Source: Gammaproteobacteria bacterium RIFCSPHIGHO2_12_FULL_39_24
Lineage (GTDB): Bacteria; Pseudomonadota; Gammaproteobacteria; Coxiellales; Coxiellaceae
NCBI GenBank assembly: GCA_001802455.1
Contig: MGXZ01000020.1
Coordinates: 32,742 to 96,741 of the forward strand
DNA length: 64,000 nucleotides
Direction: 5' to 3'
The translations under genes and the position numbers were made by a program. Of this stretch, positions 1 to 32,921 are shown in pieces. The notes under the pieces were generated by a model. It did no database searches and had not been told where the DNA came from. It was given only the letters and a program-made list of their open reading frames with translations. How positions within the stretch are numbered: position 1 is the first letter of the stretch; each line of letters begins with the position of its first letter.

Positions 1-250
1 CCACACCATTTACTATTACAAAATAAAAAACTTCTTGATGTATTTTATTTTTTTCCGATTGAAATAAATAACGCCGACATAATAGATACGCAACCATCAT
101 TCCAATAAGATAGGCAATCACAATGGACCAGGCATATGAAAAAAAATTGCCTATAATAATTCGCGATCCTAAATTAATGAATGCAGCAAATCCATTCACC
201 AATAAAAATAATATAAATTTTTTATCGTAAAACTGACTGATAATCTTCAT
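1..250 (-). CDS. GtrA-like membrane protein, N-terminal part (gene continues past the left edge)
   Basis: Absent from the ORF track because it has no stop in the window. My own reverse-complement translation from the ATG at 250..248 gives MKIISQFYDKKFILFLLVNGFAAFINLGSRIIIGNFFSYAWSIVIAYLIGMMVAYLLCRRYLFQSEKNKIHQEVFYFVIVNGV, 83 codons without a stop. It has hydrophobic helices separated by a basic loop, as in GtrA-family proteins. The start overlaps the 3' end of the upstream ORF by 29 nt. Confidence 0.55.
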   Translation of the reverse strand, partial: MKIISQFYDKKFILFLLVNGFAAFINLGSRIIIGNFFSYAWSIVIAYLIGMMVAYLLCRRYLFQSEKNKIHQEVFYFVIVNGV

Positions 251-1565
251 GAACCAGTGTCGCTAACGTTGATCCCATTTTCACACTTTCCGACATACTG
301 CGATCTTCGGGATAATAATACGCCGTATCCGCCATATAAAATCCCTTTATTTCATCACATCGCATACGGGGTAATTTATCCAAGAAATTTATGCTACAAA
401 CGGTTTGTGAATACGCATAACGCGTTACTTTTGCAGCAATAATAGCTTCTTTAGTGAATGTATTCGATATCATACTAAGATAACGTGTTGCTTCTTTAAT
501 AAATCGTTCATCTTTCCAGCGATATTTTTCATGCGTAGATGGCATGTAATAAGGCACATAAATAATTCGTTCATCAGCTTGCGTAATACTGGAATTTAAA
601 TTGGTGTATTCAATGATACCTGGCAATGCAATACGAGAATCGTTGATGTTAACCCAAAAATGTTGTGTGATCGATTTTTTTGTTTTAAATAATACGCACG
701 CAACAGCAACGTTGGTGATAGCATTAATTTGATCATGCGTTTTTTTCGAAAAACTGGGGACTAACTTACTTACAAAAGGTAGTGGGATAGTTGAAACCAC
801 AATATCACTCTCAACCAGTTGTCCATTGATATTGACACCAATCACTTTATTATTTTCAGCAACCACTTCATCCACACCGGCGTTCAAATAAATATGTCCA
901 CCCATTTCGATAATACGATTTTTCATCGCGTCTAATAAAATTTCTGATCCGCCCTCAAGATAACCCAGCTGCTCTTTAAATAAATTACGTCGTGATAAAC
1001 CAACTCGTTTAATGCGTGTTCCTAACCAAGCAGCGGACAAATCATTTTTGTAATGATAAAATTTATAATAAAACAAACTGTCCCACAAAATTTCATATCC
1101 TTTTTTTCCCACCCATTTTTTTAGCCACGCAGTCGCTGTTATTTTATCAAGCTTATTCCAATTCTTGGTGTGCGACATTTTGAATGCCATTAATCCATAA
1201 CGCAATTTAGTCAGAAAATTCAATTTGGGAAAGGTTAACAATCCAATCGGTGTTCCCCACGGATACAACTTTCCATCGTAAAAAAAACCCATCGTCGTGT
1301 CTGTCCATCGCAACGCATGTTGCAAATTAAATTCAGACAACAGATCAAACAGTGGTTTATCTGTTTTACAAATAAAATGATAAAAACGTTCAATCTGAGT
1401 GCCATCGAAATCAAATGACGCAGACATTCCTCCGATACGATCATCGCGTTCGTACACACTCACGTGAAAACCTTTTTTTTGTAATTCATACGCTGCCATC
1501 AACCCCATGGGGCCGGCGCCAATGATAATGGCATTATTCGCGCGCATTGCCATATGACTCCTCAA
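222..1565 (-). CDS. FAD/NAD(P)-binding oxidoreductase (Rossmann-type flavoprotein, amine-oxidase/desaturase-like)
   Basis: 447-aa ORF with an N-terminal dinucleotide-binding fold, IIIGAGPMGLMAAYELQKKGFHVSVYERDDRIGG. It overlaps its neighbours by 32 and 29 nt, suggesting an operon. The start could be M1, M5 or M7. Confidence 0.8.
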   Translation of the reverse strand: MRSHMAMRANNAIIIGAGPMGLMAAYELQKKGFHVSVYERDDRIGGMSASFDFDGTQIERFYHFICKTDKPLFDLLSEFNLQHALRWTDTTMGFFYDGKLYPWGTPIGLLTFPKLNFLTKLRYGLMAFKMSHTKNWNKLDKITATAWLKKWVGKKGYEILWDSLFYYKFYHYKNDLSAAWLGTRIKRVGLSRRNLFKEQLGYLEGGSEILLDAMKNRIIEMGGHIYLNAGVDEVVAENNKVIGVNINGQLVESDIVVSTIPLPFVSKLVPSFSKKTHDQINAITNVAVACVLFKTKKSITQHFWVNINDSRIALPGIIEYTNLNSSITQADERIIYVPYYMPSTHEKYRWKDERFIKEATRYLSMISNTFTKEAIIAAKVTRYAYSQTVCSINFLDKLPRMRCDEIKGFYMADTAYYYPEDRSMSESVKMGSTLATLVHEDYQSVLR

Positions 1566-2466
1566 ACGCTTGACGTAATGGTGTTGGAGTTACCTTAAAT
1601 TCTTTTTCATAATCAACACCCACAAAATAATCACCTGCGGTTAATGCTTTTAATTGATCTGTGGTAAAAGGTGGTTTACTTGAAATCATTCCGGCGATTT
1701 TTATGATCCCATAAAAAAGACGATAGGGAATTTTAATAATCATGGTTTTTGATTTTTTGATTTTTTTAATTAAGTAAATAATATCGATATAATTCATTTC
1801 CTCTAATCCAGCAATATCAAAAATTTTTCCTGACGGTTTTTTTTCAAGCGCAGAAATAATGATTCTGCAAAAATCGCGACTGTATAATGGTTGACGTAAA
1901 TATTTTCCATCTCCTGGAATCGGAAAAATAGGTGTTTTTTCCATAAAACGAGACAACCAACCAAAATGTTTTGGGTCAAACCGTCCAAACATCAAGGTCG
2001 GTCTCAAAACACAACAAGCAATATTGCTGTCAAGCACCCTCTTTTCCTGTGCTTTTTTTGTGTTGGTGTAATCATCATTTGCAACTGAGTTAACAACAGA
2101 TGAACTGACATGAACGGTAAACACAATATTATTTTTTTTAATCGCATTTAAAACATGCTCTGTTGCAGTGAGATTATTTTTTTCAAATTCAGTTAAATAA
2201 AGACTCGTGACTTGTGCATGCAGAATAATGACGTATTGCGCATCGTTGAAATGATGTTCCCACTCACCCGGCACACTTAAATCGGCGCTCACGCACTGAA
2301 CGGATGGATTGCGTTTTTGAAGCAATGCCATATTCTCTGCATGCTTATCAATTGCAACCAGATTACAAAATCCTTTTTCACGCAACAGCAATAATAGATT
2401 TTGACCCACCAAACCTGCAGCGCCGGTGATAATGATTTTGTCTTGTGTATTCATGTTAATTATCAA
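1534..2466 (-). CDS. NAD(P)-dependent epimerase/dehydratase-family SDR
   Basis: 310-aa ORF with the glycine-rich motif IIITGAAGLVGQNL and YTNTK (YxxxK). An alternative ATG lies at 2454. Confidence 0.8.
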   Translation of the reverse strand: MIINMNTQDKIIITGAAGLVGQNLLLLLREKGFCNLVAIDKHAENMALLQKRNPSVQCVSADLSVPGEWEHHFNDAQYVIILHAQVTSLYLTEFEKNNLTATEHVLNAIKKNNIVFTVHVSSSVVNSVANDDYTNTKKAQEKRVLDSNIACCVLRPTLMFGRFDPKHFGWLSRFMEKTPIFPIPGDGKYLRQPLYSRDFCRIIISALEKKPSGKIFDIAGLEEMNYIDIIYLIKKIKKSKTMIIKIPYRLFYGIIKIAGMISSKPPFTTDQLKALTAGDYFVGVDYEKEFKVTPTPLRQAFEESYGNARE

Positions 2467-2480
2467 TCATTGGTTAAAAA

Positions 2481-2605
2481 TGAATTAAGCGCTGACAATT
2501 TGCATTCGTTCGTAGCCGTCACAACACCCTTGTTTTTCGTGAACATGACACAAAAACAAGGGATCTTGCAACGGCTTCTCACTACTTTAATTAGCGCTTA
2601 ATTCA
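2481..2605. repeat. Palindromic MITE/REP-like element, copy A (125 bp)
   Basis: Terminal inverted repeats are TGAATTAAGCGCT (2481..2493) and AGCGCTTAATTCA (2593..2605). The central hairpin is CCCTTGTTTTT / AAAAACAAGGG around the core TTTTTCGTGAACATGACACAAAAA. It lies in the 154-nt gap between two co-oriented genes. Confidence 0.85.
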
Positions 2606-2620
2606 CATTAGACAATCTAT

Positions 2621-4051
2621 TCACCCAATCGCCACCAGCGCTATTACAACAATAATAAATCCGATCACATACGTAACGCGATCTTTCAACGCAAACACAA
2701 TCGGATCATCATGCATTCTCCCCTCTGCGGTCATCAACCATGCACGCAAAATCCAATATAACAATAGCGGGCAAATTAAAAATAATAATTCGCTATAGTG
2801 ATACAAACGCAAAGATTCTTGCGACTGTACATATAACGCAAAAATTAAAATAGAGGCAAAACCACTGCAAATACCGAACATTTTGGTTTCTGACTCATGC
2901 TCAATCAAATAGGCACGACCTGGTAATCGTTCAAAACCATTTTCACTAAAACGTTTTAATTCACTGAGCCGCTTCATCAGAGCAAGGCTGGTAAAAAAGA
3001 AAAATGAAAATAATAACAACCACTGTGAATAACCCGTTTCACCCATAATCGTCATACCTGCAACAATGCGCGTGGTATACAATATTGCTAACGCAAACAC
3101 ATCCACTAACAATAATTTTTTTAATTTAAACGAATAAGCAACGGTAATTATGTAGTAGGAAATCAGTGCAATACAAAATACGGATGGTAACCACTCAAGC
3201 GCCAACACAACACCCGCCATAAAATTCACCGCCATCCCCAACAATGCGTATGAAATACTTAATTCGCCGCTGGCGACCGGACGAAATCGTTTGGTTGGGT
3301 GTAGTCGATCAGAAGGTAAATCCAATACATCATTTAATAAATAGGCGCTGGATGCAATCAATGAAAAACAAATAAATCCTAATACGGTAGATAAAATAAG
3401 TGGCGCATTATTAATTTCGTGCCCCAACAAAAGCGGCAAAAATATCAAAAGATTTTTTGCATACTGATGAATGCGCAACGCTTTTAAAAATGTTGAGAAA
3501 TTATTCATTGATGTTTTAAATACGATAGAAACGGGCGTTATTTTTTTTACTTTTTCAATAAAATGTGGGCTGTTGTTAACCACAACGGCTTCAGCAGCAT
3601 GTGCAAATACGGTTAAATCACATCGACCATTGCCAACATAAACGTACTGTCTTGAACCAAATTGTTGATCTAAGAAATCTCTTTTGCTGATACCACTTAA
3701 ATTAAGATCCCAATTCGTACCAAATGCTGTTTCAAAAATGGGGATTTGTTTTGCGATGGTATCTGCAATTTTTTGATCTGCCGCCGTAACCAAATATAAT
3801 TTGCATCCAGCCTCTTTTTGTTTTTTTAGCCAAAGTAAAAGTGGTTGATTCACCGGTAAATGTAATGTTGAAACATCAATGGATCCGGATAATTGTTTTT
3901 TGCAATAAACTCTTCCTTTTACCAATAACCAATAAAATATTTTAAAAACAATAAAAATATTTTTTTTAAAAGCGGCGATGGCAGTTTCATGCAATGTGTC
4001 TGTTAAAACAAGAGAACCATCCAGATCAACGCAAATGATTTTGTTTTCCAT
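2621..4051 (-). CDS. Fusion of a HAD-type phosphatase domain and a UbiA-superfamily polyprenyl-phosphate (phosphoribosyl)transferase-like domain
   Basis: 476-aa ORF. The N-terminus carries HAD motif I, VDLDGSL. The C-terminal ~280 aa are polytopic and carry the Asp-rich motif NDVLDLPSDRLHPTKRFRPVASG. From memory this resembles the Rv3806c-type phosphoribosyltransferase branch of the UbiA family. Confidence 0.7.
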   Translation of the reverse strand: MENKIICVDLDGSLVLTDTLHETAIAAFKKNIFIVFKIFYWLLVKGRVYCKKQLSGSIDVSTLHLPVNQPLLLWLKKQKEAGCKLYLVTAADQKIADTIAKQIPIFETAFGTNWDLNLSGISKRDFLDQQFGSRQYVYVGNGRCDLTVFAHAAEAVVVNNSPHFIEKVKKITPVSIVFKTSMNNFSTFLKALRIHQYAKNLLIFLPLLLGHEINNAPLILSTVLGFICFSLIASSAYLLNDVLDLPSDRLHPTKRFRPVASGELSISYALLGMAVNFMAGVVLALEWLPSVFCIALISYYIITVAYSFKLKKLLLVDVFALAILYTTRIVAGMTIMGETGYSQWLLLFSFFFFTSLALMKRLSELKRFSENGFERLPGRAYLIEHESETKMFGICSGFASILIFALYVQSQESLRLYHYSELLFLICPLLLYWILRAWLMTAEGRMHDDPIVFALKDRVTYVIGFIIVVIALVAIG

Positions 4052-4053
4052 CG

Positions 4054-5133
4054 CTAAGTGACCAAGACTGGCTCAAGCTGAGCACTAACTGATTGCGGAT
4101 GACAAGATTTGCTATAAATCACTCGACTTCCATGTTCTTGAAAAGCAATATCCAGCAATTTATGTTCAGATAATGCTTGCGTAATCTGTGGACGTTTTTC
4201 AGGGGGTGCTACCAACAACAAAAAGCCACCACCGCCCGCGCCACATAATTTTCCACCATAGGCACCAGCCGATAATGCTTTTGCATAAACGGCATCAACA
4301 TGAGGATTGCTGATGTGTGAAGCAATACTACGTTTCACTTCCCATGCGTAATGTAAAAGTTTACCAAAACGCTCAATCATTTCCGATGCAGTGTAATGAC
4401 TGTTTGTTAAAATTGAAAAAGCGTCGTCCACTTGCTCACACAATTTTTCAAGACGTTGGTTTCGATGATCTTTGCTGTTTTCATGAAAAGTTTGCGTTTG
4501 CATTTCAGCAGAAGATCGAAGACCGCCAATAAAAAACATCATGCAGGCTGATTCCAAAGCGCGTTTTTTTTCGTAGCTCAAACAAATGGGCTCGATATGA
4601 AAACGATTCTGCGAAAAAATAATTTTATTAAATCCACCACACGCTGCATAAACTTGATCTTGCCATCCACCGGTTTTTTGCAACTCACCACCCCGTTCAA
4701 TTTGAATGGCTTCTTCCGCCAACAATTCTGGCAATCGATAAATACCATGCAAAGCGTAAATTGCGTTGAGCATGCCAACGGTAAATGATGATGAAGATCC
4801 AACACCACTAGCCCCGGGTAAATCAGCAAACGTATTAATATCCAAAAAACTATTTTCATCTAAACAAGGATGCGTTTCTAAAATACGACGCGCTATTTCA
4901 TTCTCTAGTTGACTGGGTTGGTTTACATATTCTAATTTTGCATAAGATAATCGGATGCGTTTTTCAAAAAAACGCGCGAGCGAATTGACAGTCACATACA
5001 TATACTTATCAATGGCCGCTCCGAGAACAGCGCCACGCGACTGATTGAAAAAATCAGGAAAATCGGTTCCACCACCGAAAAAACCAATACGAAACGGTGT
5101 TTGCGTAATCACAATACCCTGCGTTCTCGTCAC
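4054..5133 (-). CDS. GHMP-family sugar kinase, HddA-like (D-glycero-D-manno-heptose 7-phosphate kinase type)
   Basis: 359-aa ORF with PFRIGFFGGGTDFPDF at the N-terminus and the GHMP motif LPGASGVGSSSS. Confidence 0.75.
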   Translation of the reverse strand: MTRTQGIVITQTPFRIGFFGGGTDFPDFFNQSRGAVLGAAIDKYMYVTVNSLARFFEKRIRLSYAKLEYVNQPSQLENEIARRILETHPCLDENSFLDINTFADLPGASGVGSSSSFTVGMLNAIYALHGIYRLPELLAEEAIQIERGGELQKTGGWQDQVYAACGGFNKIIFSQNRFHIEPICLSYEKKRALESACMMFFIGGLRSSAEMQTQTFHENSKDHRNQRLEKLCEQVDDAFSILTNSHYTASEMIERFGKLLHYAWEVKRSIASHISNPHVDAVYAKALSAGAYGGKLCGAGGGGFLLLVAPPEKRPQITQALSEHKLLDIAFQEHGSRVIYSKSCHPQSVSAQLEPVLVT

Positions 5134-5147
5134 TGTTCGTCCTTTAT

Positions 5148-5945
5148 TTAAATTAATATTTTTTCTTCAGTTTGTGTTTTTTTACCCAATGACAATCCCA
5201 TCAGCTCATGATAAAAATCAATTGCATCCGCAGGTTTTCCATCAAATCGTAATTCACCCTGGTGCATCACAAACACACGACTACATAATTCTTTTAACGT
5301 ATCAAATTCATGTGATGCAAAAATTAATAATTCCGCATTATCAATTAATGCGGTAATTCTTTTTTTTGCTTTAACAATAAATTTGGCATCCCCTGCCGAA
5401 AACACTTCATCCAATATTAAAATATCACCAGAAACTGATGTGGAGATCGAAAATGCCAGTCGAACAATCATTCCGGCTGAATACGTTTTAATAGGGTAAT
5501 CAATAAAATCGCCCAGCTCAGCAAATTCAATAATTTCATCAATCATCGCGCGCATTTCTTTCGGTTTTTTCCCCAACAACAAGCCGCGGTACATAATATT
5601 CTCGCGACCCGTTGCTTCCATTTCAAAACCCAAATTCAATTCAAACAATGAACGCACATCGCCAATAATATCAACAGAACCCGCTGACAAGGGATAAACC
5701 TGCGCGATTGTTTTCAGTAGTGTGCTTTTCCCTGCGCCATTATGTCCAATGAGTCCGATTCGTTCGCCGTGATAAATTTGAAATGATATGTTTTTTAACG
5801 CATGCACATCGGTAATTTCAACGTGATTTATTTTTTTTCGTGCCACTCGCCTGAATATAGTTTCTTTAAGCGAATGTGCTTTATACGCCAATGATGAATA
5901 GCGAACATCAACATTTTTTAAAATAATATGCGTTTTCTGCGTCAT
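5148..5945 (-). CDS. wzt: Polysaccharide ABC exporter, ATP-binding protein (Wzt/TagH/KpsT type)
   Basis: 265-aa ORF with Walker A GHNGAGKST, signature YSAGM and Walker B ILILDE. It overlaps the permease gene by 4 nt. Confidence 0.88.
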   Translation of the reverse strand: MTQKTHIILKNVDVRYSSLAYKAHSLKETIFRRVARKKINHVEITDVHALKNISFQIYHGERIGLIGHNGAGKSTLLKTIAQVYPLSAGSVDIIGDVRSLFELNLGFEMEATGRENIMYRGLLLGKKPKEMRAMIDEIIEFAELGDFIDYPIKTYSAGMIVRLAFSISTSVSGDILILDEVFSAGDAKFIVKAKKRITALIDNAELLIFASHEFDTLKELCSRVFVMHQGELRFDGKPADAIDFYHELMGLSLGKKTQTEEKILI

Positions 5946-6754
5946 AAATAATGAATCAATGTGTTTTCGTTTTTAATTAATAAACGAATAGCCCATGCCC
6001 AAAAAATTAATCCTGCGACAATGACATAAGCAAAATCAATTATCATGGGCGCGTGCCCATACAAAATCGGCGCACGAAATAATTCCAACAAGTGGTAAAT
6101 TGGATTGTAAGTGACGAGCACATGCAAATGTTTCGATTTCATCAGCAGTTTGTCAGAAATAAAAATCGGCGACACGTACCACACCATCTGAAAAATTAAA
6201 ACCAACAACCGTGCAAAATCGCGAAACTGAGTATTCGTAATGCCGCAAACAATGCAAACAGGTAATGCAATAAAAAATAACATGCAAAGCGCTGGAACAA
6301 TCCACACCAACGTAACCAATAAATGAAATGGTTGTTTTAACAACATCCATGCAGCTAAACCAATCAAAGCGTACATCATGTATATCATCGAAACGAGTAC
6401 CGTTCGAATCGAATAAATAATCATCGGATGCTTAAATTGTTTGATGTAACTGCTCGCTTTAAAAAAAGCATCACAGCCATCATTGCCACTACTCGTAATG
6501 ACTTCCCACACAATTAAACCAGAATAAACGTATGGTGCGTATGAAATCGCTTGTGACTTAAAAATAAAACTCATCACCAGCGTTAAAATGGCAGTGAGTA
6601 ATAGTGGCGTTAGTACTGCCCATGCAATTCCTAAGTAGGAGCGACGAAAGCGCGCACGAATATCAGACAACGCGAGATGCCACCAAAAATAGCGTGCAGA
6701 CCAAATTCGCTGTAAGTATTGCGGATAATTCGTTTCTATTTGTACATTTTGCAT
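5942..6754 (-). CDS. wzm: Polysaccharide ABC exporter, ABC-2 type permease (Wzm type)
   Basis: 270-aa polytopic ORF with about 6 hydrophobic helices, translationally coupled to the ATPase gene. Confidence 0.85.
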   Translation of the reverse strand: MQNVQIETNYPQYLQRIWSARYFWWHLALSDIRARFRRSYLGIAWAVLTPLLLTAILTLVMSFIFKSQAISYAPYVYSGLIVWEVITSSGNDGCDAFFKASSYIKQFKHPMIIYSIRTVLVSMIYMMYALIGLAAWMLLKQPFHLLVTLVWIVPALCMLFFIALPVCIVCGITNTQFRDFARLLVLIFQMVWYVSPIFISDKLLMKSKHLHVLVTYNPIYHLLELFRAPILYGHAPMIIDFAYVIVAGLIFWAWAIRLLIKNENTLIHYL

Positions 6755-6793
6755 GCTGTTGGACGAAACCTACCATGATCAAAAACGAATGAA

Positions 6794-7507
6794 TTATGGA
6801 ATAAATGCTTGATCTGCGTCAATCAATTTGAACTCAGCATAGCTCTCCGGCGTGCCGATATCATAGAACACGCCATCTAATTCTACGACACTGAGTTTTT
6901 TTCCCTGAGTTAACAACTGGGGATATAGCTCTGTTTCAAGTGAATAAGCTTGATTCTCAGGAATCGCAGAAAAAACAGCGGGTGATAATTTATAAATTCC
7001 CGCACTCACTAATCCATTCTGTTGTTGCTGCTTTTCTGCGAAAAATGCAATTTCATTGCTATGGGACTTTAAATAAATACTGCCAAAACGATCTGCTTCT
7101 TTTACTTTTTTGACACCAATGAGTGCTACATTATCATCGAGTGATTGCATAATAAAATTATTTAAATTTCCAGAAAAAAAAGTATCGCCGTTGAGAAATA
7201 AAAATGTTGATTCTGTTTTTAAATAAGGTGCCGCGAATAACAATGCGCCCGCTGTTCCCAGCAGGGTTTCTTCGCGAGAATAAATAATGTCTACACCCAA
7301 CTGATTTCCATTTCCACATGTACTTTCAATTTTGTCGTGCAGGTATCCCGTCAATAAAATAATATTTTTTATGCCATAGCTCGCTAACTTGCGAATCAAT
7401 AAAAATAAAAACGGCGTATCACCCACTGGTGCTAATGGTTTTGGCACATCGGAAATAACCGATTGTAGTCGAGACCCTTTTCCACCCACTAAAATAGCTG
7501 CGATCAT
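6794..7507 (-). CDS. Sugar-1-phosphate nucleotidyltransferase (HddC/RmlA-fold)
   Basis: 237-aa ORF with N-terminal ILVGGKGSRLQSVISDVPKPL (GxGxRL...K motif). It is the first gene of the minus-strand run 7507..~1. Confidence 0.8.
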   Translation of the reverse strand: MIAAILVGGKGSRLQSVISDVPKPLAPVGDTPFLFLLIRKLASYGIKNIILLTGYLHDKIESTCGNGNQLGVDIIYSREETLLGTAGALLFAAPYLKTESTFLFLNGDTFFSGNLNNFIMQSLDDNVALIGVKKVKEADRFGSIYLKSHSNEIAFFAEKQQQQNGLVSAGIYKLSPAVFSAIPENQAYSLETELYPQLLTQGKKLSVVELDGVFYDIGTPESYAEFKLIDADQAFIP

Positions 7508-7749
7508 TAGTTACCTGTTGTTATACCAATTCCATTAAACGTTCGTTTTTTGATTTTTCTTTAGCGCGGCAAATTCAGCATCCTACCTCATCTTGCCTAA
7601 AATTAATATCCTTGTTAACCTTGTCAGGAGTTTTTTGTAAAAAACAAAATAAAACAATATGTTATGTCTATTTCATCGATAACCTCCTGATTTAATATTT
7701 TCAAAAAAGATAAAATATTATCTGTATTTGATATAGAATTATGCTATAA

Positions 7750-8649
7750 ATGATGTCGTACATTTCGGACAAAATATTGTCATATATTTGGATGAAAACA
7801 GTAATGCGTGATGATCAAAAGAACATGATTGTGACCATCAAGCGCGAAGCTCGACCAAAAAAGCTAACCGTGGAAATGCGACGAAATCTTTTGAGTCGAT
7901 TTCTTAATGCGCAGCCTAGTTATGTATTGGGTCGAGATTTAGCTGCTCAAAGAATGTTGGATCACAACAATTCTTGCGAGGAAAGAATAGTGCATACATC
8001 TGATTTGATGCAACCCTTTCATCCTTTACTAATTCTGATGGTCCCCACCATGACAGGCTGCGCTTTCTTGTATAACGAATACTGTTTGTCTACATCCCTG
8101 CAAGAATCTGCTTTTTTTTGGATGCGGCTTTTTTGGATGAATCCTGTGTTGTCTTGCAGCCAGTATTTTCGTGAGAGGCAAATGGAAATCAATTTTGTTT
8201 TGATGGTACTTGCAAATATGCTTTTTGGTGAAGGTGTGGGTTTGAAAACATTGTTTATTGTTGGTTTATCACTCACATGTGCAAATGTTATTAACCCATG
8301 CGTGAAAAAATTAATTGATTGCTATTGTAAATCGCAATTGGCTGCACACTACGCGAGAGAATTATTTGCAACGCTCGCTTTTATTGTGGTGAGCGCTGCA
8401 GTGTTTGGCTATGCCGTTTACACTTACTCACCCAACTCAACAGATTTATTAAACAATGAAAAATTATGTGAGCGGTTTTTAAAAGAGTGTTGTCAGGCTG
8501 CGTTTGACGTATTTGGTTTGCCGGTTACTGCGACTCGAAGAGATCTATTTCGTGAACATAAAGAATGGTCGTCACGTTGTTTTGCAACAGGAACAGACAG
8601 AGAGACTATCAATGGCGCTTTAGCAATAGCGCGTGGGTGTGCGTCGTGA
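7750..8649 (+). CDS. Hypothetical Cys-rich polytopic membrane protein
   Basis: 299-aa ORF on the opposite strand to the surrounding locus. It has several hydrophobic segments and about 14 Cys. I see no family match by eye and no obvious SD, so the start is uncertain (ATG 7750 or 7792). Confidence 0.5.
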   Translation: MMSYISDKILSYIWMKTVMRDDQKNMIVTIKREARPKKLTVEMRRNLLSRFLNAQPSYVLGRDLAAQRMLDHNNSCEERIVHTSDLMQPFHPLLILMVPTMTGCAFLYNEYCLSTSLQESAFFWMRLFWMNPVLSCSQYFRERQMEINFVLMVLANMLFGEGVGLKTLFIVGLSLTCANVINPCVKKLIDCYCKSQLAAHYARELFATLAFIVVSAAVFGYAVYTYSPNSTDLLNNEKLCERFLKECCQAAFDVFGLPVTATRRDLFREHKEWSSRCFATGTDRETINGALAIARGCAS

Positions 8650-16864: not shown

Positions 16865-19537
16865 AACGATCGCTAATCCAACACTCAATTTACAGAGCTG
16901 GATAAATACGCTGGGATAAAATGTGAATCGTAAAACGCCCGATCCCGCCGGAACGTCTACTGCCATAAAATACCCATCCGCCAAATAAATTGGGATGGGT
17001 CGATGATTCCAGCTCGCTTTCCAATCCGGCGAGAAACTATCATCAAATAAAATGATTGAGGGATGCGCGAAATGTAAGTGTAGTTGAATATGATCAGTAT
17101 CAGAAGATTTAAATTGCAATGGAATAAACCGACGCTGATTGTCCGAAGCTAATGCAATACCACTGGTCACAATGATTTTATCTACATTAAATTTTGGAGA
17201 AGCAACCAATGTTAATTGTTGCTGAGTAGTTGGCAAGCTAATCGAATCAGAAAAAGCCGAAAATCGTGACAATGCATTCGGGCGAATAATTAATTTTTTC
17301 TGCGTATCAAAATCATATTTGACACCCATCAAATCTAAAAACCGCTGATTTTTACTCCGCGGAACAATACCCGCTCGTGTAAACCACGTTTCATGCGATT
17401 TCATTGCCAAAATAAATCGTTCCAATTTGTCACTGACAATGGAATCTACACCGCCATAACTACGCAATCCATATATCATAAAAATATTAGATTGCGCAGC
17501 TCCTGATGGATTGTGCGTATAAAGATGCGGCCTATTCATTCGATAATCCCACAAATCCAGTTTGTTTTGACGCGACATAATTGATTGATACATGTTTTCA
17601 TCACCCGGATAAATGGAATTCACCGACACAAAAGGCGGATTCATTCCGGCATATTCATACACTTTTGTATAAAACAACAAATCTCCAGCTGCGAAGAAAA
17701 AAATCAACGATAAAAACAACATCATTGAAATTTTTTTGTCACGAAGAAATAAAAATAAAACCCAGGTAACTGCAAAAACAGCAATAAATCGAAGTACAGC
17801 AAAAATAGAGTATGCAATCAAATAAGGATTTTGTTGATCCGATGATTTGGGATTGATAAAAATCATCACGATACAAAACAAGATACCCAAAACCAGTAAT
17901 ACATTTTTATGCAATTGTTTATCAGTATCGATATGGGTTAGCAAATAAAATGTGGCATAAGCCCAAATCATCGAGCACAGCGTGTAGAATAACGGCGTAA
18001 AGTTAATAACCACAGGATGATGCATCAACAGATAAATGACAAAACCAAACAAGTACAAAAACGCCACCAACAATACGCCCATTATAATACGCTGAGCCAT
18101 ATGAACAAGATTTTGTGTATCCAAATTAATTTTATTCACTGCAATAATTGTGCAAACAAACAATGCGGTCAGCACTAATTTTAAAAAAATAAAAAGGGGT
18201 AGCGCATAATGACTACCAGAAAGTATTAATCCAAAAACTCTACTGTAATAAGCGATAGCGGCACATAAAAATAAACCCGCAATAAGAATAGCGCCCTTCA
18301 AAAAAAGATCAAGACGAATATTATTCGTCTGTGTCATGCCATATAAAACATATCCAATAGAAGCAAACATAACAAATGACGTTACAATGCGAAAATATTC
18401 TGTGGTTACCAAGGGTGCCGTGATAAATCCAACAATATCGGATAATGGTTGTATTAAATAAACAAAAGTCACGCAACCGAGTATTGCCAAAAGACCCACT
18501 GTGCGAACTTTATAATCTATTCCACCAAATCCCGCTAATAAAATCACAAAAACGGCTGGCATGCCAAAATACAAAAGATTGTGCATTTGAATATGCACGG
18601 CCCCACTGCCCAACATCGAAAAGAATGTAGCGGATTCACCCAGGTAAGTGCCGAAAATACCGGGGATCATACCTGTTAATAAAAGATATCCATGCGTTCC
18701 ATCTACCGACTGCGGCCACAGGGAACCTTGCGCTGTTCCACTATGCAGCAATGCACTCAAAATGGGATACCATCGATATGCTGACATTGCCATCGAAAAT
18801 AAAAATGCACTAATCACTACGCTAACGGGATAGCGCCAGGGTTTCAGCAGAAATGGATAATTTTTTACAAAAAATACAGCGGCAATAATAGTTCCAAACG
18901 CAGCGATAAACCCAAAATGACCAATACCGAATAAAAAGAAAAAACCTAATACCAAATACACAAAATTAAATAAAACTGATCGGTTATCGAGTGTTAAAAA
19001 CAAATACAAAATCAGCATGGTGAGAAAAAAACCTTCCACCCCGATAAAAGTCATGGTGCAAAACCAAGTAAATCCGGATAATTGTGTTACCAGCGCTAAA
19101 AATAAAATACCAATTCTGGGAATAGCAAACAAATTAAAAATCTTAAAAGCGAGCACACCAATTAATGCTATCTCAATGAATTCAATTACTGTCAGCAAAG
19201 AGAAAATATATTTTTCTGGTACCAACAAAAGCGGCCAATTTGCTGGATTTAACAAATGATCGTGAAAACTCGTGGTAAAATCCATACCCGCAAAAATATA
19301 CGGATTCCAAAGACCCAACGAATGCTGATGCCATTCTCGATACCCATAAATAATATTGGGATAATGATTAAATAAACTATCGGTTGTAGAAACAATATAA
19401 GAGGCATAAATAAAAAATGGTGTGAAAATAAAAAATGAAAACAGCCAAAAAAGAATCCAGGTGTATTTTGATTCTGAAAAATTTTCCAGTTGCTTTAGAA
19501 AATATCGTGCCGTGAGTGGTTTATAAAACATGGTCAT
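16817..19537 (-). CDS. YfhO-like polytopic GT-C glycosyltransferase
   Basis: 906-aa ORF with more than 20 hydrophobic helices and a soluble C-terminal domain. That domain ends with the YfhO-like segment FSPDWKASWNHRPIPIYLADGYFMAVDVPAGSGVLRFTFYP and a final TM helix. Confidence 0.7.
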   Translation of the reverse strand: MTMFYKPLTARYFLKQLENFSESKYTWILFWLFSFFIFTPFFIYASYIVSTTDSLFNHYPNIIYGYREWHQHSLGLWNPYIFAGMDFTTSFHDHLLNPANWPLLLVPEKYIFSLLTVIEFIEIALIGVLAFKIFNLFAIPRIGILFLALVTQLSGFTWFCTMTFIGVEGFFLTMLILYLFLTLDNRSVLFNFVYLVLGFFFLFGIGHFGFIAAFGTIIAAVFFVKNYPFLLKPWRYPVSVVISAFLFSMAMSAYRWYPILSALLHSGTAQGSLWPQSVDGTHGYLLLTGMIPGIFGTYLGESATFFSMLGSGAVHIQMHNLLYFGMPAVFVILLAGFGGIDYKVRTVGLLAILGCVTFVYLIQPLSDIVGFITAPLVTTEYFRIVTSFVMFASIGYVLYGMTQTNNIRLDLFLKGAILIAGLFLCAAIAYYSRVFGLILSGSHYALPLFIFLKLVLTALFVCTIIAVNKINLDTQNLVHMAQRIIMGVLLVAFLYLFGFVIYLLMHHPVVINFTPLFYTLCSMIWAYATFYLLTHIDTDKQLHKNVLLVLGILFCIVMIFINPKSSDQQNPYLIAYSIFAVLRFIAVFAVTWVLFLFLRDKKISMMLFLSLIFFFAAGDLLFYTKVYEYAGMNPPFVSVNSIYPGDENMYQSIMSRQNKLDLWDYRMNRPHLYTHNPSGAAQSNIFMIYGLRSYGGVDSIVSDKLERFILAMKSHETWFTRAGIVPRSKNQRFLDLMGVKYDFDTQKKLIIRPNALSRFSAFSDSISLPTTQQQLTLVASPKFNVDKIIVTSGIALASDNQRRFIPLQFKSSDTDHIQLHLHFAHPSIILFDDSFSPDWKASWNHRPIPIYLADGYFMAVDVPAGSGVLRFTFYPSVFIQLCKLSVGLAIVLLLLVLFEIIRWKRV

Positions 19538-20273
19538 CTATCGCCAAAGTAAATCCCGCATTCACTGCATCATTTCGAAACATCTTGACGGTGTCGAGTG
19601 AATACTCTGATAACTCTTTTCCAATTAACGGTAATTTTTTTAATACATCATTTGTCACGGTAATAATATGGCAACCTATTTCATCTGCTTGAATAATATT
19701 AAGCAACTCTCTGGGACTGGCCCAAATTAATTCGAGCTGTGAATTGCTAGACATTATTTGTAAAGCGGTTTTCACAATGGGCAATGGATCACGACCCGTA
19801 TCGGCAATTCTTCCAGCAAATACGGAGATACACGCAGCAGGACCTTTCGCCAACGCATTATTTACAACTTCAACTTGTTGCAATGTCATGAGTGCCGTTA
19901 CATTTTGTTTCACACCTTCACTCGCTAATTCACGAATTAACGAAACAGAAGATTCGCCTTTTGTGTTTGACACAGGAATTTTGACATAAATATTTTTACC
20001 CCAACTCGCTATTTTTAAAGCTTGTGCATGCATCTCTTTAAAATCATCTGAAAATACTTCAAATGAAATGGGGCGATCAGGGATACAAGCAACCATTTCG
20101 CGCGCAAATTTTTCGTAGTCATTAATGCCGGCTTTGCGCATGAGTGTTGGATTGGTGGTAAATCCTTTAATAAAGGGTTGATGATACATTTCCATCATGC
20201 TAGATTTGTCAGCACCATCTGCAAAAATTTTTACTTTCATTTCTTGTTGCGTTTTCATTGCGTCACCTCTCAA
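19521..20273 (-). CDS. Transaldolase / fructose-6-phosphate aldolase family
   Basis: 250-aa ORF with KIFADGAD and NIYVKIPVS (Schiff-base Lys context). Alternative starts are at 20258 and 20240. Confidence 0.8.
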   Translation of the reverse strand: MRGDAMKTQQEMKVKIFADGADKSSMMEMYHQPFIKGFTTNPTLMRKAGINDYEKFAREMVACIPDRPISFEVFSDDFKEMHAQALKIASWGKNIYVKIPVSNTKGESSVSLIRELASEGVKQNVTALMTLQQVEVVNNALAKGPAACISVFAGRIADTGRDPLPIVKTALQIMSSNSQLELIWASPRELLNIIQADEIGCHIITVTNDVLKKLPLIGKELSEYSLDTVKMFRNDAVNAGFTLAIDDHVL

Positions 20274-20301
20274 AACACCTCCATCACAGCATCACTCGCT
20301 T

Positions 20302-20442
20302 CTTAAATGCGAATTAAGAGCTGAATTTGCATTTACTCGTGGGCGACTGGGGGGTACTTGTTTTTCGTGAAAATGACACAAAAACAAGCACACCCCAATT
20401 TCCCGCTCGCGCTTTTAATTTTGCTCTTAATTCGCATTTAAG
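20302..20442. repeat. Palindromic MITE/REP-like element, copy B (141 bp)
   Basis: It has perfect 20-bp terminal inverted repeats, CTTAAATGCGAATTAAGAGC (20302..20321) and GCTCTTAATTCGCATTTAAG (20423..20442). The core is TTTTTCGTGAAAATGACACAAAAA. It fills most of the 193-nt gap between two co-oriented genes. Confidence 0.9.
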
Positions 20443-20466
20443 ATATTTTCTTGAAGCGCAAAACTT

Positions 20467-21141
20467 TTATTTAGCAACCGACTCCCACTTTGTTTCCACT
20501 GTTTTTAACAAAGGATGCGAAACCAGCAAATGCCAAATCACTCCCTGAAACGCTTCTGCATGCGGCGTTGTATGTGATGCATTATCCACGGGTATTAACA
20601 CACAGGCATCTGCCATTTTTTTAGTATATCCGCCATCACGACTCACAATACCAACAATTTTTGCTTTTCTATCAACAGCCAGTTGAATAGCAAAAACCAA
20701 ATTAGGGCTCACATTTTTTTCTACATTGCCGCCACCCACTGAGAGAATAAAAATAGCGTCACGTTCATTTAATTTGCTAACTACCAACCAACTTGAAAAT
20801 GTGGTCTCCCATCCTTCATCATTGGTTCTGGCGGTTAATTCAGAAACATTATCCGTTGGCGCGTAAGCTTCCATACCCACAATTTTTCGAAAATCATTAA
20901 CGGCATGTGATGCATTAGCAGCGCTACCACCCACACCCAAAATAAAAAGACGACCATTATTTTTTTTCACGTCTGCAAGAATGCGCACCATGTTTTCAAT
21001 AGAGGCAACATCTAATTTATCAATGACTGTTTTTGCTTCGGCTAAAAATTGAGATGAAAATGTCATGGTTTTATTTCCTGTATTAATTTTGCGAATAATG
21101 GATCTTGCATCCGTTCGTTTATTTTTGTGAATTTTTATCAT
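20467..21141 (-). CDS. gmhA: SIS-domain sugar-phosphate isomerase (phosphoheptose isomerase-like)
   Basis: 224-aa ORF with LGVGGSAANASHAVNDFRK, typical of GmhA-type SIS proteins. It has an N-terminal extension of about 30 aa. Confidence 0.65.
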   Translation of the reverse strand: MIKIHKNKRTDARSIIRKINTGNKTMTFSSQFLAEAKTVIDKLDVASIENMVRILADVKKNNGRLFILGVGGSAANASHAVNDFRKIVGMEAYAPTDNVSELTARTNDEGWETTFSSWLVVSKLNERDAIFILSVGGGNVEKNVSPNLVFAIQLAVDRKAKIVGIVSRDGGYTKKMADACVLIPVDNASHTTPHAEAFQGVIWHLLVSHPLLKTVETKWESVAK

Positions 21142-21164
21142 ATAAGCCTGCGGGGAATCCGACT

Positions 21165-21223
21165 ATCGCAACACCCCATCGTTCTCGTCTTAAAAGACTC
21201 ACCCGATGGGGAAGTGTTGCGAT
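21165..21223. repeat. Imperfect hairpin / possible degenerate palindromic element
   Basis: ATCGCAACACCCCATCG (21165..21181) pairs with CGATGGGGAAGTGTTGCGAT (21204..21223) with a 2-nt bulge. No U-tract follows on the transcribed strand, so it is not a canonical terminator. Confidence 0.5.
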
Positions 21224-21278
21224 GTCACCTCCTCGGCTTTTGAGGAAAAATTCAAAAAATGCTCTCACTTCTTCAGCA

Positions 21279-22001
21279 TTATTCGCATTTTAAATGCATC
21301 GGTATATACCTTGAAAACGCTTCAATGCCTTCCGCAGAACCAATTTCATAAAATCGATTTTCAACTTCATAACTGGCCAATTCATTTCGCGATAATAATG
21401 CTTGATAGAGTTGCGCCAAATCAAATTTTTTTTCCTTCTTTTTTAAATCAAATGCCTTTTGATTAAAAATTCCAAGCCCATAATCGATATAATGCATATC
21501 ATCCGTTTTATTTAATTTATCGTATACACTGATTTCATTGTTTTGGTAAACAATATTACTCTTGTCCCCTTGATCACGATTATGATAAATGGTCATCAGT
21601 GATAGTTTTTTTGAAGTCACATATTTTTTTTGAACAGCTGCGAAATCACAATCAAGATAAGAATCCCCATACATAACAAAAAAATTTTCTGATTCAACAA
21701 CCGATAAAGCGTTTTTCACAGCACCTCCGGTTCCCAGTAATTGTTCTCCATCCAACGAATAACGCACATCCACATTATATTTTTTACCATCTCCAACCTG
21801 TTGCATAATGGAATCACATAAATAACCCAATGACAAAATAACTTTCGTAATACCTTTATTGCGTAATAACGTGAGTTGATAATCAATAAAGGGTTTTCCA
21901 TGAATAGAAATTAACGATTTCGGTATTGTTTTTGTGACGGGATAAAGTCGTGTGGCTAAACCACCCGCTACAATAATCATTGGAAAAAGCGTATTCGTCA
22001 T
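21279..22001 (-). CDS. Sugar-1-phosphate nucleotidyltransferase (HddC-like)
   Basis: 240-aa ORF with IIVAGGLATRLYPVTKTIPKSL. It has a 4-nt overlap with the upstream kinase gene. Confidence 0.8.
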   Translation of the reverse strand: MTNTLFPMIIVAGGLATRLYPVTKTIPKSLISIHGKPFIDYQLTLLRNKGITKVILSLGYLCDSIMQQVGDGKKYNVDVRYSLDGEQLLGTGGAVKNALSVVESENFFVMYGDSYLDCDFAAVQKKYVTSKKLSLMTIYHNRDQGDKSNIVYQNNEISVYDKLNKTDDMHYIDYGLGIFNQKAFDLKKKEKKFDLAQLYQALLSRNELASYEVENRFYEIGSAEGIEAFSRYIPMHLKCE

Positions 22002-22981
22002 GATTCTGCAACAACGTGAGTGCCATTAAAATCAAAATTAAAACGCACTTCTGGAAAGTTTGCTTCGCGCATAATTTTTCGTAACTGTTGTTTATTCTTA
22101 GCATAAAATAGCAAGAAACCACCGCCACCCGCACCAATCATCTTTCCACCCAACGCGCCATTTTTTAGTGCGAGATCATACAAGTCATCAATATGCGCAT
22201 TGCTCATACTTTTTGACCGTTTCTTTTTATGCTGCCAATGTACATTCATTAAATCAGCAAATGTTTCTGCATCACCCTTTTCTAAAGCAGTTTTACTTTT
22301 CAAACCAATTTCTTTCACAAAATGCAAATTATCAATCATCTCTTGATTGTTATCTTTGCTTTTATCATCTTGCTCTTTCAAAATGGACGACGCTGAACGA
22401 GAATATCCGGTAAAAAATAATAGTAAATTTTCTTCCAAATCAAACAAGGTATCTTGATCCACTTTTAAAGGATAGGCATTCACTTGATTATCTTTCGTGA
22501 ATTCAAAACAAGTTAAACCACCATAAGCGGCAATGTATTGATCTTGTTTTCCAATCGGTTCGTTCAATAAATTCAGTTCAATGTGACACGCTTCTTCTGC
22601 TAATTGCTTGGCATCAACAAGACCTTTATGTAACGTGTGTAATGCTTTCAGTAAAGCAGTGGTAAAACTGCCCGATGATCCCAAACCGGTTCCTGCTGGA
22701 ATGTCTGCCATACTGGTAATTTCTAATTGGAGGGGATGCACATTAAGATAACGTAATGTTTCGCGAATCAGCGGATGTTTAATTTGATTAATTTCGCTAA
22801 CACGTTCTAGTTCTGAATATTTGATAATTAAATCGGGAAAAAATGTTTTATGTAACGTGATATACACATATTTATTAATCGCTGCCGCAATTAAAAAACC
22901 GGAGTGATTTTGATAATATGACGGTAAATCAGTTCCGCCACCTCCCAAAGAAATTCTAAGCGGGCTACGCACCACAATCAT
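21998..22981 (-). CDS. GHMP-family sugar kinase, HddA-like (second copy)
   Basis: 327-aa ORF with SPLRISLGGGGTDLPSYY and the GHMP motif IPAGTGLGSSGSF. Confidence 0.78.
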   Translation of the reverse strand: MIVVRSPLRISLGGGGTDLPSYYQNHSGFLIAAAINKYVYITLHKTFFPDLIIKYSELERVSEINQIKHPLIRETLRYLNVHPLQLEITSMADIPAGTGLGSSGSFTTALLKALHTLHKGLVDAKQLAEEACHIELNLLNEPIGKQDQYIAAYGGLTCFEFTKDNQVNAYPLKVDQDTLFDLEENLLLFFTGYSRSASSILKEQDDKSKDNNQEMIDNLHFVKEIGLKSKTALEKGDAETFADLMNVHWQHKKKRSKSMSNAHIDDLYDLALKNGALGGKMIGAGGGGFLLFYAKNKQQLRKIMREANFPEVRFNFDFNGTHVVAES

Positions 22982-23954
22982 AGTGTGAGTCCTTGTAAAT
23001 TTTATCTACTATCACGAGCGCTGCATGCGCATCACCTAAATTTGCTTCGGGCGTTTTATTATGCTTAATGTCATCAAGAAAATGGATAAATTCAACTTCC
23101 CAAGAATTGTCCGCTGTTGGATATTCCCATGAAAATGCTTCCGGTGGCCCCATTTCAGGAAGCATTTTATAAAAAGTGATGCGTTCGATACCATAACTGC
23201 CACCCAAACCATCGATCGCGATCTTACCATTCTTCCCGTAAATCTCAAATGAAAAAGTATTTTTCCATTCGGTACAACTGACATGCAAAAATGCCGTTTG
23301 TTTTTTTGCTGTTTGTAAAATTAAAAATGCATTGTCATCAACGGGCATATTCCAAAAATACGTATGCGCATGTCCAACAACATCCGTAAAATCACCTAAA
23401 AACCAACGCGCGAGATCGATGACATGTACACCTTGATCGATTAATTCACCGCCACCCGATAATACAGGATTGGCACGCCATTCTTTTTCATAACCCAGTC
23501 TGCCGCCGTGACCGTAGCGCGCGCGCAGAAACATCAGTTCACCCAACGCACCTTCATTAATCAGTTCTTTTGCTTTTTGCATGGCGCGATGATAACGATG
23601 ATTAAATCCAACGCGCACCAACACATTATTTTTTTTTGCAGCATGAATAATTGGATCTAACGCTTTCGCATTTTTGGCAGCAGGTTTTTCAACTAAAACA
23701 TGTTTTTTGGCGTTGATTGCGGCCAGTGTTATTTCAGGCAATAAATAATGCGGTGTCGCGATAATAACAATATTAATCTCAGGATCATTAATCACATCGT
23801 GCCAATTATTAGATGCAATACAATTGGAAAAGACGGCTGCGAGTTTTTCTGCTTTTTGAATATCGTGATCCACGCACCGTTTCAAAATGCATTCTTGTAA
23901 TAACTGTGCGCGTTTATTGCCGATTAATCCGCAACCAATAATTCCGATATTCAT
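22965..23954 (-). CDS. Gfo/Idh/MocA-family NAD(P)-dependent oxidoreductase
   Basis: 329-aa ORF with IGIIGCGLIGNKRA and a VLVEKPAA (EKP) motif. Confidence 0.85.
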   Translation of the reverse strand: MNIGIIGCGLIGNKRAQLLQECILKRCVDHDIQKAEKLAAVFSNCIASNNWHDVINDPEINIVIIATPHYLLPEITLAAINAKKHVLVEKPAAKNAKALDPIIHAAKKNNVLVRVGFNHRYHRAMQKAKELINEGALGELMFLRARYGHGGRLGYEKEWRANPVLSGGGELIDQGVHVIDLARWFLGDFTDVVGHAHTYFWNMPVDDNAFLILQTAKKQTAFLHVSCTEWKNTFSFEIYGKNGKIAIDGLGGSYGIERITFYKMLPEMGPPEAFSWEYPTADNSWEVEFIHFLDDIKHNKTPEANLGDAHAALVIVDKIYKDSHYDCGA

Positions 23955-28324: not shown

Positions 28325-28344
28325 TATTTTTACCTTTACTTATT

Positions 28345-29388: not shown

Positions 29389-29399
29389 GCGGCATTCCT

Positions 29400-30428: not shown

Positions 30429-30451
30429 TTTTTCCTTTATTTACACCATTT

Positions 30452-32905: not shown

Positions 32906-32921
32906 TTTCCTGTTCTCCTAA

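Follow-up and report, generated by a model that had tools for sequence, protein, structure and literature searches.

A lipid-linked pentose locus with DprE1 and DprE2 homologues and an additional, conserved SDR-flavoprotein pair in a Coxiellaceae-like gammaproteobacterium

Introduction

When a glycan locus places an unusual flavoprotein between the synthase of a lipid-linked pentose donor and a putative flippase, does that flavoprotein take the place of the oxidase DprE1, or does it serve some other step? The question arises at the left end of a 64,000-nucleotide stretch of DNA (the window) from Gammaproteobacteria bacterium RIFCSPHIGHO2_12_FULL_39_24 (contig MGXZ01000020.1, positions 32,742 to 96,741). 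Four minus-strand genes are crowded there, encoding a 476-aa HAD::UbiA fusion protein (2621..4051), an extended short-chain dehydrogenase/reductase (SDR) of 310 aa (1534..2466), its partner, a flavin adenine dinucleotide (FAD) flavoprotein of 447 aa (222..1565; 441 aa from the ATG at 1547), and a small membrane protein of the GtrA family (1..250), cut by the window edge so that its translation covers the first 83 codons of 135 aa. A preliminary description of the same DNA had placed the genes at these coordinates, where all four are present, and had read them as a decaprenyl-phosphate-arabinose-like pathway in which a Rossmann-type flavoprotein is a non-orthologous replacement for DprE1. That replacement fails, since the genes next after GtrA, a short way past the window edge, encode homologues of DprE1 and DprE2. 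The locus is probably a three-component periplasmic pentofuranose side-chain system of the Citrobacter youngae kind. Its variant of the cassette has been seen before and never explained, and what stays of interest is the pair of SDR and flavoprotein, a conserved additional module that, to judge from gene linkage and fold, most likely carries out a second redox step on the lipid-linked pentose.

DprE1 and DprE2 homologues past the window edge

Look-up of the exact 476-aa protein led to a 79-kb metagenome contig, a segment of which (L001) is 100% identical to window positions 1..14051 and reaches 7.4 kb past window position 1. Beyond the flavoprotein, L001 encodes in one direction the complete GtrA protein (135 aa, L001 13802-14209), a 432-aa FAD_binding_4 protein, a 243-aa classical SDR and a 549-aa polytopic protein, after which pgi follows. 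The 432-aa protein matches Mycobacterium smegmatis DprE1 over its full length (PDB 4aut, E 7.5e-69), and the top PDB match of the 243-aa SDR is DprE2 (E 5e-23), the next SDR standing at 4e-12. On these matches the two proteins are homologues of DprE1 and DprE2, the VAO-type FAD oxidase and the classical SDR (Rv3790 and Rv3791, respectively). Because a DprE1 homologue is encoded in the same operon of the same genome, the flavoprotein does not replace DprE1.

The inclusion of a GtrA-type gene in the set, made earlier from a fragment, is upheld by the complete protein, which matches PF04138 (E 2e-14) and belongs to the same operon; it is a putative flippase for the polyprenyl-phosphate-pentose donor. 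The gene order here is UbiA, SDR, flavoprotein, GtrA, DprE1, DprE2 and a candidate glycosyltransferase of the GT-C fold, and the order in L001 is repeated in two independent contigs (L002, L005) and in the Coxiellaceae genomes L011-L013. The overlaps of 32 and 29 nt reported for the last three genes in the window are seen with the TTG starts of the longest open reading frames (ORFs). With the later ATG starts that the metagenome gene callers chose (306 aa for the SDR, 441 aa for the flavoprotein), the overlap of SDR and flavoprotein is 14 nt, and that of flavoprotein and GtrA is still 29 nt.

The donor synthase

The fusion protein combines a HAD phosphoribose phosphatase domain (residues ~1-178) with a UbiA-type phosphoribosyltransferase domain (~179-476). 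It matches PF01040 (UbiA, E 1.7e-21) and, across residues 4-475, the NCBIfam model NF006088 with 541 bits, exceeding the cut-off of 351. The preliminary description had assigned the membrane domain to the polyprenyl-phosphate 5-phosphoribosyltransferase branch rather than to the quinone branch, an assignment that now rests on firmer ground: NCBIfam DPPRS models score 139, 127 and 102 bits on this domain, as against at most 49.5 bits for other prenyltransferase models (27.6 for CyoE, haem O synthase, and 19.4 for UbiA), and the only PDB matches of the fusion protein at E<=1 are to Rv3806c (8j8j, E 2.5e-24). The sequence NDVLDLPSDRLHPTKRFRPVASG, beginning at N240, aligns column for column with NDVRDVEADREHPTKRFRPIAAG of Rv3806c. 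The spacing of N240, D241, D244 and D248 and of R361/E364 equals that of N247, D248, D251, D255 and R366/E369 in ORF15 of C. youngae, and the Asn-Asp-x-x-Asp-x-x-x-Asp motif and the later Arg-x-x-Glu are the residues of ORF15 and Rv3806c that were probed by mutagenesis (PMC11127046). Among 64 collected homologues the core NDxxDxxxD is found in 63 and the full 23-residue pattern in 45.

The fused phosphatase, likewise proposed earlier, is borne out by the full-length NF006088 match and by the motif VDLDGS at residues 8-13 (DLDGS at 9-13), which is HAD motif I with its catalytic Asp. In an alignment of 11 homologues D9, D11 and K123 show no variation, and conservation of N141 and D145 is at least 90%. 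A profile of this domain matched HAD-superfamily proteins alone in the PDB, and weakly (E 0.017-0.95); the profile was required, as the single sequence had no match in the PDB, and against PF00702 it stayed sub-threshold (E 0.011). A free-standing homologue of the domain in locus L010 matches PF12710. The 476-aa protein is predicted to make polyprenyl-phosphate-ribofuranose from 5-phosphoribosyl-1-pyrophosphate (PRPP). Its architecture is not new, having already been characterised biochemically as ORF15 of C. youngae O1, a phosphoribose phosphatase::polyprenyl-phosphate phosphoribosyltransferase that converts PRPP to farnesyl-phosphate-ribofuranose (Kelly, Duong, Nothof, Lowary, Whitfield, PNAS 2024, PMC11127046).

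The flavoprotein and its SDR partner

The flavoprotein, which its database entry (uncultured bacterium, ACD_29 scaffold) calls a hypothetical protein, matches Amino_oxidase (PF01593, E 3e-31), NAD_binding_8 and the NCBIfam model NF005560 (505 bits). Its AlphaFold2 model has a predicted local distance difference test (pLDDT) value of 93, and the top Foldseek match is rice phytoene desaturase (5mog, template modelling (TM) score 0.83); protoporphyrinogen oxidases come next, and then an uncharacterised archaeal oxidoreductase and amine oxidases. With the plant-type phytoene desaturase/HemY group it shares the two-domain FAD fold and the N-terminal GxGxxG dinucleotide-binding motif, at TM scores of 0.77-0.83 and an identity of 14-19%; it differs from that group in its genomic context, which is glycan synthesis and not carotenoid or haem synthesis. 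Membership of the phytoene desaturase, CrtI, HpnE or protoporphyrinogen oxidase families was rejected, the fold alone being common to them: every family model falls far below its cut-off, with 71 bits against 283 for HpnE, 52 against 622 for zeta-carotene desaturase, 37 against 569 for phytoene desaturase, 45 against 238 for the crtI family and 51 against 97.85 for protoporphyrinogen oxidase (TIGR00562). Nor is the flavoprotein a member of the DprE1 family, given that it has the amine-oxidase/phytoene desaturase fold and not the VAO/PCMH FAD_binding_4 fold, and that a true DprE1 homologue coexists with it. An identity as UDP-galactopyranose mutase was also rejected. The GLF domain PF03275 has no match in the flavoprotein, sequence similarity to mutases is confined to its N-terminal 45-100 residues (E 3.5e-5), and no mutase is among its top 50 Foldseek matches; the mutase idea was not adopted as the principal reading because mutases are missing from these structural neighbours. 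In the search for flavoprotein homologues 6165 of 8000 scored candidates reached E<=1e-10, with identities of 50-74% across classes, and the nearest genomes are Coxiellaceae metagenome-assembled genomes.

The 310-aa SDR belongs to the NAD-dependent epimerase/dehydratase family (Epimerase, PF01370, E 5e-19), and the TGxxGxxG motif together with Ser121-123, Tyr133 and Lys137 is kept in all 72 aligned homologues. Its relatives in the PDB, all with low scores, are UDP-glucuronate 4-epimerase (the best full-length match), dTDP-glucose dehydratases and NDUFA9, a membrane-surface subunit of complex I that dominates the matches.

The cassette in other genomes

A scan with one genome per species yielded at least 591 relatives of the flavoprotein. 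Eighty loci were kept, all ORFs of which were searched with the proteins of the window and of L001, and 59 of these loci are well flanked, with 6 kb or more to each side of the flavoprotein. UbiA, DprE1 and DprE2 are all present in 52 of the 59, each of them with GtrA as well, and in 51 the full set of HAD::UbiA, DprE1, DprE2, the 310-aa SDR, a flavoprotein of ~430 aa and GtrA occurs together. The notion that the flavoprotein stands in for DprE1 thus fails across loci as it does here, DprE1 and DprE2 accompanying the flavoprotein in 52/59 and UbiA occurring without them in only 2/59. Those two, both from Lysobacterales (L032, L042), have HAD::UbiA, SDR, flavoprotein and GtrA with neither DprE1 nor DprE2 within 10 kb. 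In 61 of 74 loci the gene immediately upstream of the flavoprotein is that of the SDR, and in 52 of 72 the gene immediately downstream is GtrA; this order is kept in at least five phyla, in surroundings where the backbone genes are entirely different. Carriers include Xanthomonas, Stenotrophomonas, Lysobacter, Dyella, Vibrio scophthalmi, Parachitinimonas, Cupriavidus, Burkholderia, alphaproteobacteria such as Rhizobium, Cohnella and other Bacillota. The cassette is also found on a Burkholderia stagnalis replicon and a conjugative Agrobacterium plasmid, where the RefSeq names are generic.

Most PPPRS loci, that is, loci with a donor synthase of this kind, lack the SDR and flavoprotein pair: full-length HAD::UbiA occurs on ~105 plasmids, a close flavoprotein homologue on only ~7. 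Simple systems consist of UbiA with an EamA-type transporter (Vibrio alfacsensis) or of UbiA with a PMT-type GT-C enzyme (Rhodovulum). On a plasmid of Rhizobium sp. CCGE531 (L093, 7965-15907) HAD::UbiA is accompanied by a GMC-family flavoprotein oxidoreductase, two SDRs not significantly similar to that of the window, and an SMR transporter; the HAD::UbiA system of this strain was cited by Kelly et al. (PMC11127046). Flavoproteins of the VAO, GMC and amine-oxidase folds are all found beside such donor synthases, and therefore at least three flavoprotein classes accompany them.

A class I methyltransferase often adjoins the flavoprotein, which hints at O-methyl pentoses in some lineages. In loci lacking DprE1/DprE2 or UbiA, an S-adenosylmethionine (SAM)-dependent methyltransferase was seen after the flavoprotein, of the Methyltransf_11 type in L026 (stretch 11590-14221), L069 (11361-12023) and L032 (11119-11955) and of the Methyltransf_21 family in L009 (11304-13707); in L026, L009 and L032 the stretch after the flavoprotein also encodes a polytopic protein with no Pfam family. 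An LPG_synthase_TM protein of ~320 aa, with an MprF flippase-like domain, joins the cassette in 19 of the 59 well-flanked loci (examples at L007 11703-12656 and L010 14243-15214); it is common in Xanthomonadales, Vibrio and Burkholderiales and absent from the window locus. When an Enterobacteriaceae cassette (L051) was compared by megablast with every complete E. coli genome, no match was found, and the E. coli example of Kelly et al. was not located. A phage collection gave a single weak UbiA match, without annotation.

The GT-C candidate and the extent of the locus

The preliminary description had named a GT-C enzyme as the destination of the donor, and a GT-C-like polytopic candidate is indeed encoded in the same operon. 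The 549-aa protein has ~10 hydrophobic segments and, after the first helix, an acidic PFGDTWDD motif within a conserved P-F-x-D-x-W-D ... H-N-E-H-R signature; by eye, the same signature is found at the N-termini of the pair-adjacent membrane proteins in L026 (PFWDxWD...HNEHR) and L010. Its structural model has a pLDDT of 67 overall, with values of 70-95 through most of the membrane part, and the top structural matches, ArnT, AftB, Pmt1/2, ALG6, AftD and PglB, are all GT-C enzymes. From this model the protein is likely to be a member of the GT-C superfamily. Elsewhere in the window no other GT-C homologue of the cassette-associated families was found.

The four genes with which this analysis began are not a separate unit, as the co-directional block runs on past both sides of them. 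Downstream the operon continues past window position 1, so that the window edge cuts it. Upstream an HddA-like sugar kinase of the GHMP family (4054..5133, minus strand; PF00288 and PF08544; NF049969 131 bits, below the cut-off of 600) ends 3 nt before the start of the UbiA fusion gene. It is preceded, all on the minus strand, by the Wzt-type ATP-binding subunit of a polysaccharide ABC exporter (5148..5945; PF00005; NF050108 226 bits, below the cut-off of 400), by the corresponding Wzm-type permease subunit (5942..6754; NF050109 129 bits, below the cut-off of 380) and by an HddC-like sugar-1-phosphate nucleotidyltransferase (6794..7507; PF00483, E 3e-32; NF049965 146 bits, below the cut-off of 300), whose gene is the first of the block. 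Window positions 1..7507 and ~3.8 kb past the left edge are probably one co-directional glycan locus of a Coxiellaceae-like gammaproteobacterium.

Relation to characterised systems

In C. youngae O1 and O2, ORF15, a transporter and the GT-C enzyme ORF12 (GT136) add periplasmic side-chain pentofuranoses, and auxiliary epimerases change the sugar in systems of this type, ORF13 being the xylofuranose epimerase (PMC11127046). The present locus resembles that system in the N-terminal HAD domain joined to a UbiA-type PRPP transferase with the same catalytic motif spacing (a comparison made from published residues), in the adjoining Wzm/Wzt genes, and in the presence of a small transporter and a polytopic GT-C-like protein. 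It differs in that the transporter is of the MATE type there and of the GtrA type here, that epimerisation here falls to DprE1 and DprE2 homologues, with an extra SDR and a phytoene-desaturase-like flavoprotein besides, and that no similarity in sequence between the GT-C candidate and known families could be detected.

The likeness to the mycobacterial decaprenyl-phosphate-arabinose pathway (Rv3806c, Rv3807c, DprE1, DprE2, Rv3789) extends to homologues of Rv3806c (E 2.5e-24), DprE1 (E 7.5e-69) and DprE2 (E 5e-23) and to a GtrA-family protein, together with the four-step chemical logic; the Gram-negative counterparts of that pathway, in the arabinosylation of Pseudomonas aeruginosa Pa5196/PA7 pilin and in Azorhizobium/Rhizobium noeCHOP, compare in the same way. 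The mycobacterial phosphatase is a separate PAP2-type protein, whereas here it is a fused HAD domain; the carrier here is presumably undecaprenyl phosphate, and there are two further redox enzymes that have no counterpart in those pathways.

A further close relative is a block of Xanthomonas citri 306, XAC3588-3595 (AAM38431-38438), at the etfA end of the lipopolysaccharide (LPS) locus, found also in X. oryzae BXO8 and BLS256; its genes were catalogued in 2007 with no function given (Patil et al. 2007, PMC2238763). The block encodes a 481-aa HAD::UbiA protein, a 433-aa oxidoreductase, a 242-aa SDR, a 314-aa NAD-dependent epimerase, a 428-aa 'phytoene desaturase' and a 132-aa GtrA protein; gene order and host lineage differ from those of the present locus, and flavoprotein identity is ~50%. 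The same gene set is found in Xanthomonas loci L034, L053, L077 and L079. Kelly et al. show X. citri in their Fig. S12 as a 'more elaborate system with multiple epimerases', and a Bacillus is likewise named among these more elaborate systems, which have multiple epimerases and GT-Cs; their text does not mention a flavoprotein (PMC11127046). Tn5 mutants of XAC3591, XAC3593 and XAC3595 were defective in biofilm formation (PMC3130047). On the function of the cassette, the literature turned up gene lists and Tn5 phenotypes alone.

A proposed pathway and its alternatives

To judge by two characterised enzymes with which it shares strong homology, the UbiA domain would move ribose-5-phosphate from PRPP onto polyprenyl phosphate, and the fused HAD domain would strip the 5-phosphate to leave polyprenyl-phosphate-ribofuranose. 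By homology, the DprE1 and DprE2 proteins would oxidise and re-reduce C2, giving an arabinofuranose donor. The SDR and flavoprotein, as conserved gene linkage alone suggests, may perform a second redox tailoring at the membrane surface, either a further epimerisation or a change of ring or configuration, and the outcome would be a final donor distinct from plain ribo-, arabino- and xylofuranose, or else a parallel second donor. GtrA would carry the donor across the membrane, and the 549-aa candidate GT-C would add the sugar to the polymer exported by the adjacent Wzm/Wzt.

The case for a tailoring step is one of distribution. The pair is absent from the arabinofuranose systems of P. aeruginosa, mycobacteria, Azorhizobium and S. 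maltophilia R551-3, and the flavoprotein from the ribofuranose and xylofuranose systems of C. youngae. Because systems making these donors work without it, the pair is not needed for ribo-, xylo- or arabinofuranose; it is dispensable for those sugars yet kept between donor synthase and GtrA, and therefore an extra tailoring step is the most economical reading. Several observations weigh against this reading, or against the larger scheme of which it is part. The role of the pair is drawn from gene linkage and fold alone, and the flavoprotein occurs with no UbiA within 10 kb in 5 of the 59 well-flanked loci. The enzymes closest to it in structure act on isoprenoid chains, as desaturases, or oxidise porphyrinogens or amines, and none of them is known to oxidise sugar hydroxyls. 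The DprE1-like protein scores 353 bits on NCBIfam NF053785, below the equivalog cut-off of 500, and the DprE2-like protein 160 bits, below its equivalog cut-off of 250. The Foldseek matches of the 549-aa protein are weak (E 0.05-0.5, TM 0.27-0.38, with a model pLDDT of 67), and by sequence nothing was recovered for it from Pfam and NCBIfam with the single protein, from Pfam with 11 homologues, or from a profile search of the PDB. Finally, the block itself contains no Leloir glycosyltransferase.

Three other roles for the pair were weighed. Replacement of DprE1 and DprE2, with the flavoprotein and the 310-aa SDR performing the 2'-epimerisation of lipid-linked ribose to arabinose, is very improbable: the position of the two beside PPPRS and GtrA does mirror the DprE1/DprE2 logic, and L032 and L042 show the pair with HAD::UbiA and GtrA where DprE1/DprE2 are missing, but genuine homologues of both stand in the same operon here and in 52/59 well-flanked loci, and under replacement nearly every genome would carry one pair too many. 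The pair might instead furnish a dedicated carrier, the flavoprotein desaturating, saturating or isomerising an isoprene unit of the polyprenyl chain and the SDR taking a lipid alcohol or aldehyde as its substrate. In favour of a lipid substrate, the closest structures are those of phytoene desaturase, protoporphyrinogen oxidase and carotenoid desaturases, the closest named NCBIfam relatives are HpnE and carotene desaturases, NDUFA9 is prominent among the SDR's matches, and some loci have the flavoprotein away from UbiA. Such a role is nonetheless unlikely, in that the scores for HpnE (71 against 283) and desaturase (52 against 622) lie far under their cut-offs, and the genes linked to the pair are sugar-donor genes and GtrA rather than those of isoprenoid synthesis, no polyprenyl synthase being seen in the cassettes.

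The two enzymes might also act as an epimerase and a mutase-like flavoenzyme on a soluble nucleotide sugar for the polymer backbone, and so be mere neighbours of the pentose genes. The SDR is indeed of the epimerase/dehydratase family, and of its full-length PDB matches UDP-glucuronate 4-epimerase is the best; the upstream genes include those of a GHMP kinase and a nucleotidyltransferase, and UDP-galactopyranose mutases are among the weak sequence matches of the flavoprotein. The constancy of the SDR-flavoprotein-GtrA order in at least five phyla while the backbone genes change completely, with no GLF domain and no mutase in the top 50 structural matches, makes this quite unlikely.

A second redox step on the lipid-linked pentose thus stays the preferred reading, and within it a bolder version is possible, if on balance doubtful: the pair would turn the polyprenyl-phosphate-D-arabinofuranose or -ribofuranose donor into a lipid-linked pentose without a known biosynthetic route, for example L-xylose (the C4 epimer of D-arabinose) or D-lyxofuranose. 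L-xylose is a non-stoichiometric side branch in Ralstonia O-antigens and occurs also in those of Xanthomonas and Stenotrophomonas. A chemically coherent course may be that the flavoprotein opens or re-closes the ring, or oxidises the sugar, and that the GalE-like SDR inverts a centre; the neighbouring methyltransferase of some loci may then yield O-methyl pentoses.

Other genes of the window

The remainder of the window is rich in glycan genes, among them GT2 enzymes, DegT aminotransferases and several SDRs. A second sugar-activation set on the minus strand at 19521..23954 (a transaldolase/F6P-aldolase family protein, an SIS-domain isomerase, a nucleotidyltransferase, a GHMP kinase and a GFO/IDH/MocA oxidoreductase) parallels the HddA/HddC-like pair beside the UbiA fusion; on a Vibrio alfacsensis plasmid (L094) a GHMP kinase, a heptose isomerase and a nucleotidyltransferase lie immediately upstream of HAD::UbiA. 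At 27116..33866, also on the minus strand, a DegT aminotransferase, the alpha and beta subunits of a thiamine-dependent E1 enzyme, two extended SDRs and a B12-binding radical SAM enzyme stand in a row, an array suggestive of a pathway for an amino or deoxy sugar that is branched or C-methylated; presumably the set resembles the O-antigen region of Coxiella burnetii. A 708-aa protein with ~12 hydrophobic segments and a sub-threshold YfhO match (26.9 bits, cut-off 28.5) is encoded on the plus strand at 34025..36151, adjoining a GT2 glycosyltransferase at 36043..37053 on the minus strand, and the two may form a second, hexose-type lipid-linked glycosylation pair (GtrB-like with YfhO/GT-C-like).

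Between the glycan block and methionine-salvage genes (an IF-2B family protein at 12673..13686 and a class II aldolase at 13683..14336) stand two divergently oriented plus-strand ORFs without a Pfam match, one of 299 aa (7750..8649) and one of 1368 aa (8565..12671), the latter with Pro/Thr-rich linkers and a Ser-rich, basic C-terminus. Two minus-strand genes likewise encode proteins without a Pfam family, a 906-aa protein with ~15 hydrophobic segments (16817..19537) and a soluble protein of 538 aa (14333..15949).

Implications

As an ordinary member of the three-component family described by Kelly, Whitfield and colleagues, the locus gives no room to the claim of a DprE1 replacement. Side-chain pentoses alter the antigenicity of O-antigens and other surface glycans, and the donor pathway is related to a validated tuberculosis drug target. 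What the comparison isolates is a concrete problem, a redox pair conserved, at identities of 50-70%, across hundreds of species, the citrus canker pathogen included, and linked to the genes of a lipid-linked pentose donor. Solving the reaction of this pair could explain the origin of unusual pentoses in bacterial glycans, and the pair itself could join glycoengineering toolkits.

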